Assembly (NCBI GenBank): GCA_024276825.1
Contig: JAJRWI010000044.1
Location: 1 to 64,000 of the forward strand
Source of the DNA: an archaeon
Lineage (GTDB): Archaea; Asgardarchaeota; Thorarchaeia; Thorarchaeales; Thorarchaeaceae
Reading direction: 5' to 3'
DNA: 64,000 bases
The notes under the pieces are model-generated. The model had not been told where the DNA came from and searched no databases. It worked only from the letters and a program-made list of their open reading frames with translations. The translations under genes and the position numbers were made by a program. The first letter of the stretch is position 1. Each line of letters opens with the position of its first letter. Positions 13,734 to 59,592 of this stretch are shown here, in pieces.

Positions 13734-15033
13734 CTAGATACTTCTTGATGTCAACCTCTGGAAATCGTGCTTTGTCAAAGCTCTTACCCTTGGTCACAAG
13801 CGGCTTTGTACAGTCAAATCCACACTTTGTTGTCATTTTTGTCCCAGGTTCGGCACTTGGATCGAGAGAACTTCCTGGCTCTTTGTCCTTGATCAACAAA
13901 TCAACATCTGCTTGGAATCGTGTTGCCATTGCCCACTCCCTCTCTTGCTCATCATAGATGTCGACATCATCATCGTATATCCAGATGTGTTTTGCACTCT
14001 TGTGTCCCTCAAATGCAGCCTCAATTGCCTTGATTCCCTCATCCTCATGCTTTTTCTTAATCTTGACTGCCACATGCAGCCAGCTGGCTCCTCCTGGAGT
14101 GATGTTCACATCTAGGACGTCAATACCCCTGTCTTTAATCTTTTTGAAAATTGTTGGTTCTCGTGGCATGCCCATCAATATCTTGTGCTCAGATCTTCCT
14201 GGCAAAAGGCCCTGCCAGATTGCATCACTTCTATGAGTGATCTTCTTGACTTCAAACACTGGTTCCTGACGCACAACATCAACAGTTTCTGTGAGATCAA
14301 TGAATGGCCCCTCATCTGCCTTCTCCTCAAGTATCACTCTTCCTTCTAACACAAACTCACAATCAGCTGGAATCATCAGGTCTACAGACTTGGCTTTCAC
14401 CGTCCTGATGCGCTTTAGGGCGTTTGCAATCTCTAACTCGTCAACACCAGTTTCCACACTTGTGGCTGCTGCAATCAAGATCTCTGGAGTGTTCCCGATG
14501 CAGAATGCAACATCGACCTCTCCATTTCTCTCAAGAAACTTGTAAAAGTCCCTTCCTTTTACTACCCGGGTCACCATCTTGTCCTTTCCAATTTGCATCG
14601 CTCTGTGAAAGTCCAAGTTTTGTCCAAATTCAGGATCTGCTGAAACAACAACCCCTGATGAAATGTATGGACCACCATCAATCTTGTTGTGAATCAAAAT
14701 TGGAAGGTCATCAAGATTGACATGATTCTCCACAACCTCTTGACAGGGTGCTTTATCAGTCACCTCAGGTGGACTTCTGTTCTCAATTGCAGATGTGAGT
14801 GTGGGGATTATCTGTTCAGGAGTAATTCCAAAATAGTCTGCTATCTGCTTCTTGGTACAAAATAGATTTCCTGCAACTCTATACTCACTGTCCATCAACT
14901 TCTCAAAGAGTACTGGAGTTGGTTCAAATGTCTTCAAAACTCCTGCAATCTCCAGATTCTTTGAAACACTTTTCTTAATGACCGTGAGTTCACCTCTCTC
15001 TCCAAGTTCCTTGATATAACTCTCAAGTATCAT
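13726..15033 (-). CDS. UbiD-family anhydromevalonate phosphate decarboxylase
   Basis: DGGPY, EGPFID, EH.ILMG, DDDVDI, WAMATRFQ, SSLDPS; lies between mvk and PMDh. Confidence 0.9.
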   Translation of the reverse strand: MILESYIKELGERGELTVIKKSVSKNLEIAGVLKTFEPTPVLFEKLMDSEYRVAGNLFCTKKQIADYFGITPEQIIPTLTSAIENRSPPEVTDKAPCQEVVENHVNLDDLPILIHNKIDGGPYISSGVVVSADPEFGQNLDFHRAMQIGKDKMVTRVVKGRDFYKFLERNGEVDVAFCIGNTPEILIAAATSVETGVDELEIANALKRIRTVKAKSVDLMIPADCEFVLEGRVILEEKADEGPFIDLTETVDVVRQEPVFEVKKITHRSDAIWQGLLPGRSEHKILMGMPREPTIFKKIKDRGIDVLDVNITPGGASWLHVAVKIKKKHEDEGIKAIEAAFEGHKSAKHIWIYDDDVDIYDEQEREWAMATRFQADVDLLIKDKEPGSSLDPSAEPGTKMTTKCGFDCTKPLVTKGKSFDKARFPEVDIKKYLGE

Positions 15034-51564: not shown

Positions 51565-52887
51565 TTATAGGAATCTCAGGTGCTTGTAGGCTGGAGTCTT
51601 AGTATCAAAGGCAAACTGTACTTTCTGATACTCCTTTCTAAACTCTGCAACGTCTTCGGCCACCTTCACGACACTCTCACCTTTCATGACGACTCTATGC
51701 ATGAACTCTGCAATCGCATCCATCTCTGGCTCCCTCATCCCAAGTCGAGTCATTTCACTGGTACCAAGTCTAATGCCACCGGGAGTCTTATAATCACGTC
51801 CCATCTTTTTATCCCATGGAAGCAGATTTCTATTGATGATGATATTGGCTCTCTCAAGTTGTTCTTCCACAATACGACCGTTCTTCATCGGAGTTTCTGA
51901 GATGTCCACAAGAACAACATGCGACTCTGTAAAGCCCTTGTGTTCGGCAATCACCTTCCAACCGCGATCATAGAGGGCCTGAGCGAGTGCTTTGGCATTT
52001 TTGATGATTTGTTCTGAGTAATCCTTTCCAAATTCCATCATCTCCGCAAGGACCACAGCAAGACCTGCAACATTATGCAAGTGATGATTACTCATCATAC
52101 CGGGAAATGCAGCCCGCTTCACTGCCTCTGAAAGTTCCTCCCTTGCAAGGACAATACCGTGTTGTGGACCTGGCATAGTCTTATGAGTGGAGGCAGTCAT
52201 GATGTCTGCTCCCTCCCTAAGTGGGTCTTGAAATCTACCTGCGGCGATAAGTCCCGAAACATGTGCTGAATCATATCCAATGCGCATTCCATACTCATCT
52301 GCGATATCCCTGAACTCTTTCACAGGATGCGGGAACGGGAATACACTGCCACCAAATAGCAGGAGCTTTATCTCTTGCCCCCCTTCTTGCAGTTTTCTTA
52401 TCTCTTTGATACTAGCATCTACATCGATATTGAATTCCTTCTCGTCAAAGACCCAATTGCGCACCTTGTGCCCCCTGACTGCACCTGCGGTTCCACCAAG
52501 ATTTCTTCGTGCATGAGAAATATGACCACCATGAGCAATTGATAATGCCATCATCCTATCGCCAGGGGCCATTGTTGCAGTGTACATCATCAGGTTGGCA
52601 ACAACTCCCGAAACTGGCCTTACATCTGCGAACTCGGCGTTATAGAGCTTCTTAGCAAGGTCAATACAAATCAGTTCTACTTCATCGATATACTTGCACC
52701 CGGCATATACTCTCTCACCAGGCCAGCCCTCTGCATAGCGGTCTCTGAAATCACATACTATTGCTGATCTCACCGCGGGTGAAGAAATGTTCTCGGATGC
52801 AATGAGATTAATCGTCTTACTCATCCAATTATCGTGCTTTTCAATAAGATCAAATACTGTGTCATACAACTTCTTGTGTTCACTCAA
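51565..52887 (-). CDS. glyA: serine hydroxymethyltransferase
   Basis: LIASEN, YAEG, STHKT, GIRLGT. Confidence 0.97.
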   Translation of the reverse strand: MSEHKKLYDTVFDLIEKHDNWMSKTINLIASENISSPAVRSAIVCDFRDRYAEGWPGERVYAGCKYIDEVELICIDLAKKLYNAEFADVRPVSGVVANLMMYTATMAPGDRMMALSIAHGGHISHARRNLGGTAGAVRGHKVRNWVFDEKEFNIDVDASIKEIRKLQEGGQEIKLLLFGGSVFPFPHPVKEFRDIADEYGMRIGYDSAHVSGLIAAGRFQDPLREGADIMTASTHKTMPGPQHGIVLAREELSEAVKRAAFPGMMSNHHLHNVAGLAVVLAEMMEFGKDYSEQIIKNAKALAQALYDRGWKVIAEHKGFTESHVVLVDISETPMKNGRIVEEQLERANIIINRNLLPWDKKMGRDYKTPGGIRLGTSEMTRLGMREPEMDAIAEFMHRVVMKGESVVKVAEDVAEFRKEYQKVQFAFDTKTPAYKHLRFL

Positions 52888-53000
52888 ATGATGACCTCCC
52901 AAGCCATGAGGATGTGTGCGCTGAGGTCCAACTTCGTTATATCACTTGCGACAGGGCTGCAATCAGTCTGAATGTGGTTTAATACACTAACAGAAGAAGA

Positions 53001-53136
53001 TGGCGGGCCAGGTGGGACTCGAATTCGTGTTGTGTTTCGTAGTGAAACCCAATCCCACGACCAACAAGTCTCTCCAATCCCAGCAAAATACTGGAGATTT
53101 AAGAGCCTGTCGCTATACCGACTTAGCCACTGGCCC
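53001..53136 (-). tRNA. tRNA-Lys(CTT) with two 30-nt introns (37/38: 53070-53099; 53/54: 53024-53053), CCA encoded
   Basis: Removing both inserts gives a 76-nt cloverleaf GGGCCAG...ACAGG-CTCTTAA-CTTGT...GTGGG-TTCGAGT-CCCAC-CTGGCCC-GCCA. Confidence 0.92.
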
Positions 53137-53280
53137 ACGATTCAATGTCTTTTCAGATTGAGTTTATAGATGTTGCGATACTGCATCCACCTCTTACCAC
53201 CAAGAATAAGATTAGGAGGCTATTTATGGTGCGATGATATATATCTCTAGACCATTGGAAGCAGTATAAGAGGTGTTCTG

Positions 53281-54915
53281 ATGCTGAAGATGATTAGCAA
53301 TAACAAGTTCTTTGTAGTCGCACTCGTTGCGACTATAGTCACTGCTGGAATGTCATTTGGAAACCTTCCCACGCCTTCCCCTCCTCAAGGCGTTCAGGTG
53401 ATTAATGGAGTCACTTTCAACTTTTCTGATTACCCGTTTGTCCCTCATGAGTCATTGGCCCTGTTTAACTATCTGGACACGATAGTCAGTAGCAAATATC
53501 AAGGGTATGGCGAATGGGAGGGGTGGTATGCAGAGAACTATCATGGCCTTCATCATTATGTGCTGGCCTTCATGGACTATACTGTCAGTGCGATGTTTGA
53601 AGCTACTTCTGGATATCGTACTGATTACTATCGTGAGTTTGCATATGATCTGATAAAACGAATGAACACTACGGAGGAGGAATGGGGTGAAAACAGCATC
53701 GAATACAAGGAGTGGACACATCCCGAGTATAACTATGTTGATTACTATTATCCAAACAATGCATCCGATCCCAATGCAGTATACGTTGGGGGCTGGCGCG
53801 GTCCCGCAAATATCATGTGGACCGGACATTATGCCTTGATGCAGGCATTATATGAGAGAAACTTCAACACAGGTGAGTTTATTGATGAACTGAGCTGGTT
53901 TATCAAGGACTGGAACCTCTCACTGTTGACGGATCGCCATGGCAATTCAAAGGAGGGTGGATTATGGGGTGTTGGACTGATTCCATGTGAACCATACATT
54001 GTCTTTGTTCAATGCAATTCAATCCCCATACTGACAACTGCCCTCTATGACAATATGATGGGTACAAACTATATGCCCATGTGGGACTATGGACTGAACT
54101 TCATAAATACAGTCATGCAAGATCAATATGGTCTCTTTATGGATGGCTATTATGTGGATCGACCAACTTCAATCTACTATAACACTGAACGCCTGCCTGA
54201 TACAATCCCTGGTCCTGCACAATCACTGTATGCCAAAGATGGCAGGTGTAAAGTGTCATCTTACTGCAATGGTTGGGCTCTAGCCTTTCTTGAATACATT
54301 CAAGAGAACGAAACTATACATGATTACCCAATTTTCTTGCAACATTTCAAGAAAGACATATCTCCCGACATGGCATATATCATTGACACTTACAATAATC
54401 CAACTGGATTCGGGACATTTGATATACTTGGCACACTATTCACAATGCATCTTGCTAATCAGCGGGGCGATTATGCATTAAGAAACCGTCTTGTTAATTT
54501 TCTCTATAGCTCCTATAATAAAATCTGGTCATCTGATGGGCGTAGAATGTATTATGACACGCTCTCCATCGAACCATTCATGCAACCAGTTCTTGCATTT
54601 GGCCACATATGGGCCACAAACCCCGTTACTATAAAAGACCTCGGTGATGCACGTCCAGCCGAATTCTGGAATTATCCATATATCAGCTCAGCTGATGATG
54701 ATAATATTTGGGTCTATCAGGCCCAGTGGGATCCCAACAAGTCTGCATTCATTCTGAATATCCGCGTAGACCGGACTGCCACATTGACATTCAGCAATTT
54801 TGACGCAACTCCAACTGCATATTTTGGAGGAACGGTCCTCACTCAATTGACTCAGGCTGCTGATGGATATACTCTGACACTAAGCCCGGGTCAGTATAAC
54901 CTTGTGATAATGTGA
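53281..54915 (+). CDS. secreted/anchored linalool dehydratase/isomerase (Ldi/LinD) family protein
   Basis: NIMWTGH and CEPYIVFVQCN match recalled LinD NIMYKGH and CEPDNYFVQCN; N-terminal signal or anchor. Confidence 0.82.
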   Translation: MLKMISNNKFFVVALVATIVTAGMSFGNLPTPSPPQGVQVINGVTFNFSDYPFVPHESLALFNYLDTIVSSKYQGYGEWEGWYAENYHGLHHYVLAFMDYTVSAMFEATSGYRTDYYREFAYDLIKRMNTTEEEWGENSIEYKEWTHPEYNYVDYYYPNNASDPNAVYVGGWRGPANIMWTGHYALMQALYERNFNTGEFIDELSWFIKDWNLSLLTDRHGNSKEGGLWGVGLIPCEPYIVFVQCNSIPILTTALYDNMMGTNYMPMWDYGLNFINTVMQDQYGLFMDGYYVDRPTSIYYNTERLPDTIPGPAQSLYAKDGRCKVSSYCNGWALAFLEYIQENETIHDYPIFLQHFKKDISPDMAYIIDTYNNPTGFGTFDILGTLFTMHLANQRGDYALRNRLVNFLYSSYNKIWSSDGRRMYYDTLSIEPFMQPVLAFGHIWATNPVTIKDLGDARPAEFWNYPYISSADDDNIWVYQAQWDPNKSAFILNIRVDRTATLTFSNFDATPTAYFGGTVLTQLTQAADGYTLTLSPGQYNLVIM

Positions 54916-54916
54916 G

Positions 54917-55546
54917 GTGGCAAAAATGACCGAAGAAACAACGAAGTCAGAAGCGAGCGCTGAGAAAATGACTGTGCTTGAGCGTTGTAGAATGAATGAC
55001 AGATCCGCATTAATGAAAACAATGCTCTATGCATTAGTAGGCGCAGCTCTATACACCATTCTACAAATGATCCCTCACCCGTTCATTGTTTTGGGTCTGC
55101 TAAAATTCGGCCTACTTCCCTCATTAACAATAATTGCACTTGTTGGTGCAATAAGGGGGCCCACAGCAGGCTTTCTGACTGGCTATCTAGGCGAGGTGAC
55201 ATATGGTCTGCTAATTCATAATACCATAGTGACAATGACTCTTGATGCTGCAGCATTTGGAGTTATTGGTCTGATAGTGGGATTGGCATCATATGACCTC
55301 AAGAATGGCAGGTCTTTGGTGAAGTTGTCAATACTGTCAGTCACAGGTCTGATATTTTCGACTCTGCTGATAGTAGTGATTGCAATGAAGGTCGAGGTAT
55401 ACGGAACATTAGCAATTCTCGGCTTTGAGATGTTGCCTCTCTTGACCCTCGGGATTCCAACACTCATGTTCTTGACACCTGTTCTCGCAAGAATCTGGGC
55501 CAAAATCGCCATTAGTTTGTCCCCAGCTGGTGAAAAAGCCCATTGA
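54917..55546 (+). CDS. ECF transporter S component
   Basis: About 6 TMs; IALVGAIRGPTAGFLTGYLG signature. Confidence 0.78.
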   Translation: MAKMTEETTKSEASAEKMTVLERCRMNDRSALMKTMLYALVGAALYTILQMIPHPFIVLGLLKFGLLPSLTIIALVGAIRGPTAGFLTGYLGEVTYGLLIHNTIVTMTLDAAAFGVIGLIVGLASYDLKNGRSLVKLSILSVTGLIFSTLLIVVIAMKVEVYGTLAILGFEMLPLLTLGIPTLMFLTPVLARIWAKIAISLSPAGEKAH

Positions 55547-55731
55547 GAATTGAGAGAGTTATTCTCTCACTTCTCTTATTCTTTACACCTGACACAGATA
55601 CCATGCACACCAAAACTACAATGAACGATCCATCCTGCAAAGTGGGACTTTTTCTTTTTCCCACTATATTTATAGGAGAGGACATACTATCCCTTGTTCA
55701 CTTTGATTTTTATCAAGGAGGTTCAAGACTC

Positions 55732-56535
55732 ATGTTTAATCCGTTAGGTCCTAGCCTTGAATTGGTCTGGGATTTTATTGCCATGATAATATCATTCGTG
55801 CTCGTGTTGCTTCTGGTGCAAATAAACGCGGCAATTGAGAAGAGTGGGAAGCTTTCAACAATAGTGACTAGAAAAGTCATTCATACATTTGCAGCTCCTG
55901 TGTGGATGGTTTCATGGCTGTTGTTCTCAGGTGGCCTGTTCAGCAGATGGTTGGCCATGATAGTACCCTTACTCTTTGTCCTGCAATTCCTTGCCATAGG
56001 AACAGGAAGAGTGGAGAATGAAGACTTTGTGAGATCAATGTCCCGCAGTGGCGATCCAAAAGAATTACTTGGTGGCACACTTTACTATGCAACTATCATG
56101 GTGATTTTTGGCATCCTGTGGTTCTATGTGCCCCCTGGTGGCAATGTTGCACAAGCATCACCAATTGCGATTATTGCATTGGCATGCCTTGCAGGCGGTG
56201 ATGGACTGGCCGACGTGATAGGCAGAAAATATGGTGGTGAGAGAAAATTTGGCATTGGTGGTTCTGAAAAGACAATTGCAGGGGCATTTGGAATGTTCAT
56301 TGGAAGTCTTCTCTTTAGCATTGTCTTGCTATTAATATTCTCCCTTGTAGTTTCGTCATTTGTAGTGGCTGATATCTTCGTACCTCTTCTAATTATCAGT
56401 ATTGTCGTCACAATCGTCGAATTTCTAACACCCAAAGGCTATGATAACATCAGTATTCCAATTGCAGCGGTCATTACAATGATCCTCCTGCCCTACATCA
56501 TTCCTACCTGGGCATTCCCCTTACTTACACTCTAG
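55732..56535 (+). CDS. CTP-dependent phytol/farnesol (polyprenol) kinase
   Basis: RKVIH, SMSRSGDPKELL.G.LYY, GDGLADVIGRKYG, KTIAG, DNISIP; GGAGG RBS before 55732. Confidence 0.85.
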   Translation: MFNPLGPSLELVWDFIAMIISFVLVLLLVQINAAIEKSGKLSTIVTRKVIHTFAAPVWMVSWLLFSGGLFSRWLAMIVPLLFVLQFLAIGTGRVENEDFVRSMSRSGDPKELLGGTLYYATIMVIFGILWFYVPPGGNVAQASPIAIIALACLAGGDGLADVIGRKYGGERKFGIGGSEKTIAGAFGMFIGSLLFSIVLLLIFSLVVSSFVVADIFVPLLIISIVVTIVEFLTPKGYDNISIPIAAVITMILLPYIIPTWAFPLLTL

Positions 56536-56568
56536 ATTAAATATGCAATTATAGATGGTGGCGGTCTC

Positions 56569-57387
56569 ATGAAGAACGAGCTCACAATAATCAAGCTTGG
56601 GGGTTCGCTGCTAACAGACAAGTCCCACCCTTACTCGGTTCATAGTAACATACTGGAAACGGTTTCTCACGAAATCAGAGATTGCATGGACAAAGGGCTG
56701 ATACAATCGCTAATTATTGTTCATGGTGTTGGCTCTTATGGCCATCCACCAGTGCTAGAACACAAGCTTCACAAGGGCTTCATGGGACCCCATCAGCTTT
56801 TGCCCCTCTCAAAGACTCAAGCAATAGTCGCTGAATTCAGGGCAATAATTGTCAGAGCATTACAGGATGCAGGTATACCTGTCTGTCTGATGTATCCTTC
56901 ATCTATGATGGTTCAAGAAAGGATGAGGCTCACACGCTATTTTCTTGAACCACTAGAGGGATTCCTATCATTAGGAATGGTGCCCCTGCTTGGTGGTGAT
57001 ATTCTGATAGATCCTGCTATGGGCTGGAGTGTCGGAAGTGGTGACCAGATTGCAGTGGTATTGGCCAAGGAACTTGGTGCAAGGCATCTATATTTTGCCT
57101 CTGATATTGATGGTGTTTTTACTGCAGATCCAAAGCAGAACCCTGATGCAGAGCTCATTGACACAATTAATTTGAACAAGGCTGAAGAAATTTTGGAAAG
57201 ATTGAGAACATCCAGCGGTGCTGATGCAAGTGGAGCAATGCATGGGAAGATAAATGCAATCCTGAGCCTGAAAGATGATATTCAAAATGGTCTTGATGTA
57301 GCAATTCTATCAATGATGACTTCTGGCAGGCTTACTGCCCTTCTGGAAGGCGGTGATACAAGAGCCACCTGTTTCTCGGTTGTTTGA
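56569..57387 (+). CDS. ipk: isopentenyl phosphate kinase
   Basis: IKLGGSLLTDK, HGVGSYGH (IPK signature His), SGDQ, DASGAMHGK. Confidence 0.88.
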   Translation: MKNELTIIKLGGSLLTDKSHPYSVHSNILETVSHEIRDCMDKGLIQSLIIVHGVGSYGHPPVLEHKLHKGFMGPHQLLPLSKTQAIVAEFRAIIVRALQDAGIPVCLMYPSSMMVQERMRLTRYFLEPLEGFLSLGMVPLLGGDILIDPAMGWSVGSGDQIAVVLAKELGARHLYFASDIDGVFTADPKQNPDAELIDTINLNKAEEILERLRTSSGADASGAMHGKINAILSLKDDIQNGLDVAILSMMTSGRLTALLEGGDTRATCFSVV

Positions 57388-57443: not shown

Positions 57444-58520
57444 ATGAGCGAAGTCGAAACAAGGATGCCCCATAATATAATGAGAGACCGTGACGTTTTT
57501 GAAACACTCAATAATCATCTCTATGTGACCCATGGCTTCATACAACCCCGGGACAAAATAATATGCTACCTCAAATATATACCCGATATGAATGGCAAGT
57601 GGATCTCCCCCCATGGACGCTATAGGAGAGTATTCTCAGGGGGTCCCGAATCGGTAATCTCTGCCATGAAGATTTCACATCAATCCTATTTTCAATATGA
57701 TAAACATCTTGGGGTTGAAATTTTGAAGGTCCCAGTCGATGACGTCCTGCGGTACTATCGCCCTGAGGACCGGATGAACGACATAATCAAGCACGGACCA
57801 AATGATGCTTTGGAAGAACGGGCCAAGACGATTGCAGAGATGCTCCATGACACTCTAAAAATACCCTTTGATAGGATAGGAGTGGCTGGAAGTATCTCAT
57901 GGCATGGACATAATCCCTCTTTCTCGGATGTGAATATGAATGTGTATGGACAAGATGCCATTAACAAACTGCTGAATGGCAGAGATATGATTGTTGAAAC
58001 ATATCCAAGCGTTCGATATCGAACCATCAAGGAATGGGCCGATGGGAGCATTGTTCGTCTGTGTATGCGAATTACTCACATCACCAAAGAGGACATGATC
58101 CCATTGTTTAAGAGACGTCGCGAAATATGCCTAAATGACATCTATACTGGAATCATGCCAGTCCTCCTACCCAACGAGGCTCCAATAAAGCATGGTCATG
58201 AATCATATCACGCCATTAACGATGTTCCTCTCAAGGCTGAGCTCGAGATTTTAGACACTCAGTTTGGATCATTGACCCCCGCCATATATCAGACAATCTC
58301 TCAACCCCTTGATATTATTGATGGGGACCGAATCACCAGACTGATGATCTATGATGGTGCCTTCAAAGACCTTCTCCTGCCTGGTGATACTGTAGAGGTG
58401 AATGGAACAATTCAAAGAGTGATCACAAAAGACTCAAGTGAGCTTTATCAGATTATGATAGGAACAATGAGGGGTGTGGGCAGGGAGTTTCTCAGGCTTG
58501 TTGACCAATCATCAGGCTAA
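57444..58520 (+). CDS. predicted nucleotidyltransferase (COG1665-like)
   Basis: YLKYIPD, IGVAGS...SDVN.NVYG. Confidence 0.65.
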   Translation: MSEVETRMPHNIMRDRDVFETLNNHLYVTHGFIQPRDKIICYLKYIPDMNGKWISPHGRYRRVFSGGPESVISAMKISHQSYFQYDKHLGVEILKVPVDDVLRYYRPEDRMNDIIKHGPNDALEERAKTIAEMLHDTLKIPFDRIGVAGSISWHGHNPSFSDVNMNVYGQDAINKLLNGRDMIVETYPSVRYRTIKEWADGSIVRLCMRITHITKEDMIPLFKRRREICLNDIYTGIMPVLLPNEAPIKHGHESYHAINDVPLKAELEILDTQFGSLTPAIYQTISQPLDIIDGDRITRLMIYDGAFKDLLLPGDTVEVNGTIQRVITKDSSELYQIMIGTMRGVGREFLRLVDQSSG

Positions 58521-58533
58521 GGAATGTGATAGA

Positions 58534-59592
58534 ATGAGAGTTAAAAGGCTCTGTGTCAGAGTGCCCAAACATCTTGGCGAGCATACAAGACAGAAGCTCT
58601 TGGAACACGGCGCATTAGATATTAAATGCAGAATACTTGAAGTAAATGGGCATCTTATGATACCAACCAGACCTGAAATCAAGAAGTCCGTGGTTGCAAA
58701 GATATTTAGCGATACACCCTGTGAGATATGCCCTCATGAGTTTGATATGTTGTCCTCGGGTCCAAGGAGCCTTGAAGAAGCTCTTGCTGGAGTGTTGAGC
58801 CATAAAGAATTGAGTCTTTTGCCGCGTGCTTATGACCTCATTGGTGATATTGCGGTTCTTGAGATTCCCCCTGAATTGGAACAATACTCATCACAAATTG
58901 GCTATGCCTTCCTATCCATACATAAGAATTTCAAAACTGTCCTTGCAAAAGAGGGGGCAATCTCAGGACTTACCCGAACTCGAAAATATCGCCTGTTGGC
59001 GGGTGAGAACAAAACAAGGACGGTGCATACAGAGTATGGCGTTAAAATTGCAGTAGATCTTGCAGTGGCATATTTCAGTCCAAGATTATTGGAGGAACAC
59101 CATCGAGTGGCAAGTCTTGCGTCAGATGGCGAACGCGTCTTTGATATGTTTACTGGGGTTGGACCATTTGCCCTTCATATTACAAAGCATCATGCTTCAG
59201 ATGTGGTTGCTGTTGATATTAATGGGGCAGCAATCATTCTACTCATGGATAGCATTGACATGAATCAACTCACTGGCAGGGTCTTCCCAGTCATCAGCGA
59301 TGCCAGGGATTATGCATATGCTTGCACCGTTGATTTTCATAGGATCATAATGAATCATCCATCTGGGTCTGAGGCTTTTGTAGATGCCGCATGTAGAGTA
59401 ATAGCCCCTGGTGGAGTCATTCACTTTTACTCATTCATTGCTGGAAATAATCCAGAAGCGCAGATGGAGAAAAAGATCACTAGACTGGTTACTGCTGCAG
59501 GTCGTAAGGTGTCAGACATTCCAACAATCAGAAAGGTCCGCGATAGTGCTCCTTATGAGTTCCAGATGGTCGCAGATGTAGTCATTGATTGA
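58534..59592 (+). CDS. trm5: tRNA m1G37 methyltransferase Trm5 family
   Basis: YDLIGDIA, YFSPRL, DMFTGVGPF, RIIMN. Confidence 0.9.
   Translation: MRVKRLCVRVPKHLGEHTRQKLLEHGALDIKCRILEVNGHLMIPTRPEIKKSVVAKIFSDTPCEICPHEFDMLSSGPRSLEEALAGVLSHKELSLLPRAYDLIGDIAVLEIPPELEQYSSQIGYAFLSIHKNFKTVLAKEGAISGLTRTRKYRLLAGENKTRTVHTEYGVKIAVDLAVAYFSPRLLEEHHRVASLASDGERVFDMFTGVGPFALHITKHHASDVVAVDINGAAIILLMDSIDMNQLTGRVFPVISDARDYAYACTVDFHRIIMNHPSGSEAFVDAACRVIAPGGVIHFYSFIAGNNPEAQMEKKITRLVTAAGRKVSDIPTIRKVRDSAPYEFQMVADVVID

Follow-up and report, generated by a model that had tools for sequence, protein, structure and literature searches.

Do four neighbouring genes that read like successive steps of one salvage pathway in fact make up one? 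The question is raised by a locus at positions 53,281 to 57,387 of a 64,000-nucleotide stretch of DNA (hereafter the window; contig C36, GenBank JAJRWI010000044.1) from a 2.9-Mb, 98% complete metagenome-assembled genome (MAG) of the class Thorarchaeia, labelled G000 here. In order, the locus encodes a LinD-like enzyme, a protein resembling the S-components of energy-coupling factor (ECF) transporters, a polytopic membrane kinase (TMK) and a second isopentenyl phosphate kinase (IPK2). A preliminary description had taken the four for a single terpene and prenol scavenging system. The answer we favour, at slightly better than an even chance, is that they are two independent two-gene modules sharing one slot of a Thorarchaeia synteny block. 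The first (pair A) probably captures an allylic isoprenoid alcohol or alkene by means of a coupled enzyme, and the second (pair B) is probably a two-step salvage route from prenol to prenyl diphosphate. The features of the locus are as follows.

53281-54915, + strand: LinD/Lis-family enzyme P0001, 544 amino acids (aa); identified by Pfam, alignment with Protein Data Bank (PDB) entries, and orthologues
54917-55546, + strand: ECF S-component-like protein P0002, 209 aa, six helices; identified by PF07155, fold and pairing
55547-55731, + strand: spacer of 185 nt separating pair A from pair B, from reading of the sequence
55732-56535, + strand: TMK P0126, 267 aa, polytopic membrane kinase of the VTE5/FOLK/dolichol-kinase family; assigned by relatives and fold
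56569-57387, + strand: IPK2 P0004, 272 aa, second isopentenyl phosphate kinase; identified by NF040647 and solved enzymes of this type

An open reading frame (ORF) reading of the window confirmed the four co-oriented genes, and the gaps between consecutive ones (1 nt, 185 nt and 33 nt) resolve them into two tight pairs and a spacer. The two tight pairs that the preliminary description had noticed are strongly borne out by these gaps together with the conserved pairing within each, and all four of its gene identifications held as well (PF18566, the S-component fold, the fold and relatives of TMK, and NF040647). The S-component-like gene has a GTG start 1 nt past the LinD stop, with an ATG at 54926. 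The kinase ORF is readable from 55543; we set its start to Met64 (55732), the position shared as a start by all orthologues and by an identical 267-aa record (P0126). The spacer carries a T-run (55650-55659), a TATA-like box (55664-55676) and a Shine-Dalgarno-like AAGGAGGT (55715-55722), elements which, as read from the letters, suggest that pair B has its own promoter.

The distribution of the genes separates the two pairs. We surveyed 87 Thorarchaeia genomes, which are related and partly incomplete MAGs, so the counts must be read with some caution: the LinD-like gene occurs in 46 of the 87 and the TMK orthologue in 64, with both pairs in 36 genomes, pair A only in 10, pair B only in 28 and neither in 13 (odds ratio 1.7, Fisher p = 0.34). 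Kinship among the genomes would inflate, not mask, a real association between the pairs. Inside pair B, by comparison, TMK and IPK2 adjoin in about 60 of the 64 TMK-bearing genomes, and the 23 genomes without a TMK orthologue comprise 21 with one isopentenyl phosphate kinase, one with none (G004) and one with two (G013). The same adjacency of TMK and IPK2 is found in six other Asgard families (f2, f9, f12, f14, f20 and f24), with no LinD-like gene nearby. Among the Asgard families searched, LinD-like genes outside Thorarchaeia occur in f13 and f22 only: f13 has pair A and no TMK orthologue at E ≤ 1e-25, and f22 has pair A together with kinase-like genes that are read without a neighbouring IPK2. 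The pairs are gained and lost independently and are two separate units.

Both pairs recur in dozens of genomes, an arrangement far beyond chance, and in 19 of the 36 genomes holding both they lie no more than 3 kb apart, across several genera. The reason for this proximity appears to be the place where they sit. The pairs share one slot in a housekeeping block, in which SHMT precedes the slot and P5-Trm5 and four further genes follow it, and the slot is filled differently from genome to genome: by both pairs in G000, by pair B alone in G010 (of the same genus), G047 and G076, and by pair A alone in G014 and G052, while in G018 and G073 pair A occupies the slot and pair B lies elsewhere in the genome. 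Since the slot belongs to a conserved block and either pair is retained in genomes lacking its counterpart, shared ancestry explains their adjacency.

These observations bear directly on the idea of one pathway, in which the LinD-like enzyme would convert extracellular terpenes or tertiary alcohols (isoprene/methylbutenol, linalool, nerolidol) to primary prenols, the S-component would import them, and TMK and IPK2 would activate them for lipid or cofactor synthesis. The four functions do fit chemically, the pairs are close in the 19 genomes just mentioned, the LinD site is intact with the enzyme predicted on the outer face of the S-component, and IPK2 is an extra copy beside a housekeeping enzyme. 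Nevertheless, there is no co-occurrence signal, pair B does without pair A in 28 Thorarchaeia genomes and six other families, pair A does without pair B in 10 Thorarchaeia genomes and in f13, and the adjacency, broken in G018 and G073, belongs to a block in which SHMT and Trm5 are retained as well, with a promoter-like spacer between the pairs. We therefore regard a single four-gene pathway as improbable. The check on neighbourhood conservation proposed in the preliminary description went against the single pathway, with linkage conserved within each pair and not between them. Its suggestion that the mevalonate pathway is bypassed fared no better: HMG-CoA reductase, a UbiD-family gene and a first isopentenyl phosphate kinase (IPK1) are all encoded in the genome, so that the mevalonate route is present and there is no need of a bypass. 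The UbiD-family gene lies in the same window (14194-14760, − strand) and is a candidate anhydromevalonate phosphate decarboxylase.

What, then, does each pair do on its own? P0001 matches the Pfam family Ldi (PF18566) with 50.3 bits (cut-off 26.1) over profile positions 138-199, and its distant orthologue L040 with 85.9 bits over positions 2-198. In a phmmer search of PDB sequences, P0001 also matches the LinD structures of Castellaniella (5g1u/5i3t) at E 4e-8. Its NIMWTGH motif aligns with LinD M125/H129 and CEPYIVFVQCNS with C171/C180. The equivalents of these four residues never vary among 20 orthologues, some as little as 33% identical, and the two motifs hardly vary. The protein carries an N-terminal helix (about residues 10-27) and a Pro-rich linker; the Ldi-like catalytic domain follows, and about 100 aa extend beyond it at the C-terminus. 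At the very N-terminus, two lysines are followed by a hydrophobic stretch and then the linker, an arrangement that, judged from the sequence, looks like a signal anchor and would leave the catalytic domain extracellular. From the preserved site we infer that P0001 would catalyse chemistry on allylic or tertiary isoprenoid alcohols or alkenes.

The LinD-like family is small, with 177 clusters at E ≤ 0.001 in a profile search of 1.84 billion representatives, and our literature search returned no paper on LinD homologues in archaea. P0001 shares with LinD (Ldi) of Castellaniella defragrans (PF18566; 5g1u, 5i3t, 5hlr) a homologous catalytic domain, the M125/H129/C171/C180 set and a non-cytoplasmic location, the last of these predicted for P0001. 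It differs in being archaeal, in being only about 20-25% identical over part of the domain, in its length (544 versus 397 aa, with the C-terminal extension), in an N-terminal anchor that looks uncleaved, and in having an S-component partner and no catabolic terpene genes nearby. The second characterised member of the family, Lis of Thauera linaloolentis (PMC4791888), is membrane-attached like P0001, but through four fused N-terminal helices and with a domain predicted to be cytosolic, whereas P0001 has one helix, a separate six-helix S-component and a predicted outward orientation. Some clusters of the LinD family carry four fused N-terminal helices like those of Lis, P0320 being a Lis-like fused form. 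This four-helix domain was also tried as a fused S-component and rejected (hhalign probability 0.1%).

The partner, P0002, falls just under the cut-off of PF07155, the ECF riboflavin-type S-component family (26.3 bits, cut-off 26.7), which its orthologue L041 exceeds (29.6 bits). A comparison of P0002 with the PF07155-marked neighbour of P0251, a distant LinD relative, reached 98.5% in hhalign. Its AlphaFold model has a mean predicted local distance difference test score (pLDDT) of 79.6, and S-components (RibU, ThiT, PanT, FolT and BioY) fill the first 23 places among its PDB matches, with probabilities of about 1.0 and template modelling (TM) scores of 0.49-0.66 depending on the target. P0002 shares with these known S-components the fold, a weak PF07155 signal and a shared EcfAA'T module, and differs from them in forming its own subfamily, encoded beside a LinD-like enzyme that it is predicted to bind.

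The two genes form a fixed pair. The S-component gene directly follows the LinD-like gene in the window itself and in 13 of 13 related loci whose downstream DNA is readable, in six of six loci from two other Asgard families (f13 and f22), where the LinD-like proteins are 33-36% and the S-components 25-30% identical to those of the window, in five further Thorarchaeia loci, and in L074, from a still more distant lineage. No S-component was seen in the contexts around wider-family LinD relatives in L072, L073 and L076, and a partial ORF downstream of such a relative in L075 was considered and rejected, since it is not S-component-like. Pairing is therefore not universal in the wider, bacterial-type LinD family.

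Structure prediction suggests that the two proteins meet. The predicted P0001-P0002 complex has an ipSAE of 0.71, the best of three controls scoring 0.00; in a benchmark, 58 of 80 solved complexes attained the mark used for this score, as did 2 of 110 mismatched pairs. Contact agreement between the runs is at least 83%, and the partner has a pLDDT of at least 80. We know of no solved complex of LinD with an S-component, so it seems unlikely that the score reflects likeness to one. In the model, residues 10-30 and 358-430 of P0001 contact residues 50-66, 93-110 and 156-192 of P0002, that is, its three outward loops (L1, L3 and L5) and the adjoining helix ends, which would place the enzyme over the mouth of the binding pocket.

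We hypothesize that in pair A a membrane-anchored, outward-facing LinD/Lis-family enzyme sits on an ECF-type S-component. Its N-terminal helix would pack on the helices of the S-component, while the catalytic domain would cap loops L1, L3 and L5, which may gate the pocket. The enzyme would perform acid/base hydration-dehydration or a 1,3-hydroxyl shift on allylic or tertiary isoprenoid alcohols and alkenes, and would hand its product directly to the S-component for import, a "convert and capture" arrangement. Import could proceed through the S-component alone or via the shared EcfA-EcfA'-EcfT module of the genome: such an operon (ABC, ABC, CbiQ/EcfT) is encoded on contig C24 with no adjacent S-component. 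Contig C81 carries CbiM-CbiQ-CbiO, and a gene for a true RibU-like S-component lies at another site of the genome. To our knowledge, no S-component is coupled to an extracellular enzyme or carries an isoprenoid alcohol, and our literature search found no such case.

It is also conceivable, with a similarly small probability to that of a single pathway, that pair A imports nothing. The S-component-like protein would then be a membrane anchor or a lipid-presenting subunit, and the enzyme would modify or detoxify a hydrophobic isoprenoid at the outer face, which could be a lipid of the membrane, the tail of a quinone or polyprenol, or a toxic terpene alcohol; in some lineages it would act jointly with a MacB-type extractor or exporter. 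Lis of Thauera is itself anchored by four helices (PMC4791888), P0320 is a Lis-like fused form, and the predicted complex shows helix-helix packing within the membrane. The surroundings of some relatives point the same way. In f22, the LinD/S-component pair of loci L040 (9443-11786), L042 and L043 is followed by a conserved gene trio, which in L040 consists of a 150-aa protein, a MacB_PCD/FtsX permease and an ATP-binding cassette (ABC) ATPase. The locus of the distant relative P0296 combines two LinD-like genes with a DUF4418 protein and a MacB/FtsX permease. In all, the LinD-like genes stand by a small membrane protein and a MacB_PCD/FtsX permease in three of the four f22 loci and in this distant relative, with the ABC ATPase present in the scanned f22 locus. 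However, the fold and family signal of the partner are those of a true S-component, a free EcfAA'T module is present, the Lis-like form has a four-helix domain that bears no relation to the S-component, and the MacB link is absent from the Thorarchaeia loci. We thus continue to prefer enzyme-coupled capture for pair A.

Pair B opens with TMK, which we assign to the VTE5/FOLK/dolichol-kinase family, probably, on the strength of its fold and its relatives, so that a CTP-dependent phosphorylation of prenols is predicted. Its motifs are GGDGLADVIGRKYGG and E..TP...DN..IP, and its 463 database relatives bear the source names dolichol kinase, phytol kinase and diacylglycerol/polyprenol kinase. Five of 16 TMK orthologues match PF01148 weakly (best E 0.0018). 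In an atlas fold search, the TM score was 0.80 for a plant cluster named "putative phytol kinase", 0.78/0.89 for the "diacylglycerol/polyprenol kinase family" and 0.62 for eukaryotic DOLK. Against PDB sequences, the profile of the orthologues found CdsA alone (4q2g, E 0.054), over the GGDGLAD..GR..G region; the CdsA-type PGHGG..DR.D signature is absent from the TMK consensus (A1), which has no HGG motif. A second TMK-family paralogue (G000:C77:2673-3389), about 30% identical and without a Pfam match, is found in nearly all of the 87 Thorarchaeia genomes and may be the housekeeping dolichol kinase. In one genome (G023:C15:40895-41672), the TMK orthologue is split in two by TGA and TAG stops, and the adjoining IPK2 is intact.

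The identity of IPK2 is clear: it scores 176.9 bits against the NCBIfam model IPPK_Arch (NF040647, cut-off 120), matches solved isopentenyl phosphate kinases at E 2e-34 and keeps the KLGGS, GSYGH and SGDQ motifs. IPK1, at G000:C28:40633-41400, adjoins rpS10 and scores higher with the same model (203 bits); apart from G004 and G013, genomes that lack TMK have IPK1 as their one kinase of this type. In a maximum-likelihood tree, 14 IPK2 rows form one clade (99/92), all of them TMK-linked except one from G013, and 18 Thorarchaeia IPK1 rows form another (100/99). The Thorarchaeia IPK1 proteins (orthologues L052-L070), a long-branched clade of their own, read VLGGGAHGH where other enzymes of this type have VHGxGSFGH, and a sister family has a canonical-looking kinase (G001, L065) that falls in neither the IPK1 nor the IPK2 group.

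What sets IPK2 apart is the signature S-V-[G/C]-SGD, in place of which IPK1 and the solved enzymes have I-L or I-V; IPK2 is thus smaller at two pocket positions. We take the Val position to be that of I156 in the Methanocaldococcus jannaschii enzyme, the pocket positions being mapped to F83/I86/I156, and Ala in place of this I156 reportedly admits longer prenyl phosphates. The same position is the Ile changed to Ala in PDB 7lnw as compared with 7lnt. IPK2 resembles the archaeal enzymes of M. jannaschii (3k4o), M. thermautotrophicus (3ll9) and Ca. M. alvus (7lnt), being above the equivalog cut-off with the catalytic motifs in place, and differs from them in forming a separate clade that travels with TMK beside IPK1, with Val and Gly/Cys at the two tail-pocket positions.

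We hypothesize that in pair B the CTP-type prenol kinase would phosphorylate a free isoprenoid alcohol in the membrane, and that the dedicated IPK2 paralogue would add the second phosphate, returning the prenol to the prenyl diphosphate pool. The pair would therefore act in salvage or recycling beside an intact mevalonate route. The substrate is most likely farnesol or geranylgeraniol, a C5 prenol being less likely. Known kinases of the VTE5 family act on alcohols of C15 and longer and known isopentenyl phosphate kinases on C5 substrates, so one of the two families must work outside its known range. We lean somewhat towards IPK2 acting on a longer substrate, either farnesyl or geranylgeranyl phosphate, since its two smaller pocket residues are clade-specific, and give a C5 route a distinct minority chance. 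Similar chemistry is known in other organisms. VTE5/FOLK and VTE6 of plants and cyanobacteria and PolK of Plasmodium (PMC9782597, PMC10849223) likewise provide two successive kinases from prenol to diphosphate, the first of the same membrane family as TMK; unlike VTE5/VTE6, pair B has as its second kinase an isopentenyl phosphate kinase paralogue of the amino-acid-kinase fold instead of DUF92/VTE6, and its genes form a fixed pair. The same two-step reaction has been measured in an archaeon, the geranylgeraniol and geranylgeranyl phosphate kinase activities dating from 1996; the reviews we consulted name no genes for them. Our literature search found no paper linking an isopentenyl phosphate kinase to a phytol-type kinase.

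Several of our observations weigh against the two modules as drawn here. In the LinD-like enzyme, the equivalents of D39' and Y45' (D66 and Y73 of P0001) are variable among orthologues; in LinD, Asp39' and Tyr45' come from the neighbouring protomer of the pentamer. The MacB/FtsX-type ABC neighbours in f22 and in one distant relative hint at export or extraction instead of import. TMK (P0126) has no Pfam or NCBIfam match of its own, its model is of moderate quality (pLDDT 69.7), and a Foldseek search of that model against PDB returned nothing at E ≤ 0.001, CdsA (4q2e) being a weak row. The pocket changes of IPK2 are modest, isopentenyl phosphate kinases generally reject geranyl phosphate (PMC13386471), and the genome encodes a DUF92/VTE6-family protein (G000:C33:91983-92756) that could serve as a long-chain prenyl phosphate kinase. 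In addition, only an IPK2-type enzyme and no IPK1 was found in G010, G017, G032, G040 and G072, the first of which is a single 3.2-Mb contig from the same genus. This suggests either that IPK2 serves the mevalonate route in these five genomes or that the assemblies are incomplete, and IPK2 may accordingly be a competent ordinary isopentenyl phosphate kinase.

Least likely of the alternatives, in our view, is that pair B salvages no shared substrate, TMK being the dolichol kinase of N-glycosylation, IPK2 a second ordinary kinase of the mevalonate route and their adjacency a matter of co-regulation: the dolichol kinase names given by the sources, an STT3 gene about 8 kb upstream, the five IPK2-only genomes and the full set of motifs kept in IPK2 speak in its favour, but the near-universal TMK paralogue fits the housekeeping role better, TMK is absent from 23 of the 87 genomes, TMK and IPK2 come and go jointly and adjoin across seven families, as expected for consecutive steps, and IPK2 has its clade-specific pocket changes.

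The immediate surroundings of the two modules belong to the housekeeping block. Between SHMT and the LinD-like gene lies a tRNA gene (53004-53136, − strand; Rfam RF00005, 38 bits, E 1e-6), whose length of 133 nt indicates that it bears an intron; ARAGORN reported no tRNA in 52800-53300, although Rfam detects one. Downstream of IPK2 follow two genes.

57444-58520, + strand: P0005, 358 aa, constant companion of Trm5b across Thorarchaeia
58474-59592, + strand: Trm5b, tRNA methyltransferase, neighbour of P0005

P0005 has no match in Pfam, NCBIfam or PDB sequences, and is a candidate tRNA-modification partner of Trm5b.

The negative result carries a lesson of its own: neat four-gene "pathways" in conserved synteny blocks can be accidents of ancestry. 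Were the four genes to form one pathway after all, they would amount to a natural anabolic "isoprenoid-alcohol utilisation pathway" supplementing the mevalonate route, in which an ECF transporter would for the first time be seen capped by an enzyme and, likewise for the first time, a natural isopentenyl phosphate kinase would act as a prenyl phosphate kinase. With two modules, as we prefer, pair A, if the proposal is true, would be the first case of an S-component physically coupled to an extracellular enzyme, and its enzyme a third type within the LinD family, from Asgard archaea of terpene-bearing anoxic sediments. Pair B offers a concrete gene-pair candidate for the long-missing kinases that return farnesol and geranylgeraniol to the diphosphate pool, such kinases being known from plants (VTE5/FOLK and VTE6) and from one Plasmodium prenol kinase. 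If this is true, an isopentenyl phosphate kinase paralogue recruited for the second phosphorylation would represent a novel solution and be useful in engineered routes from alcohols to diphosphates.

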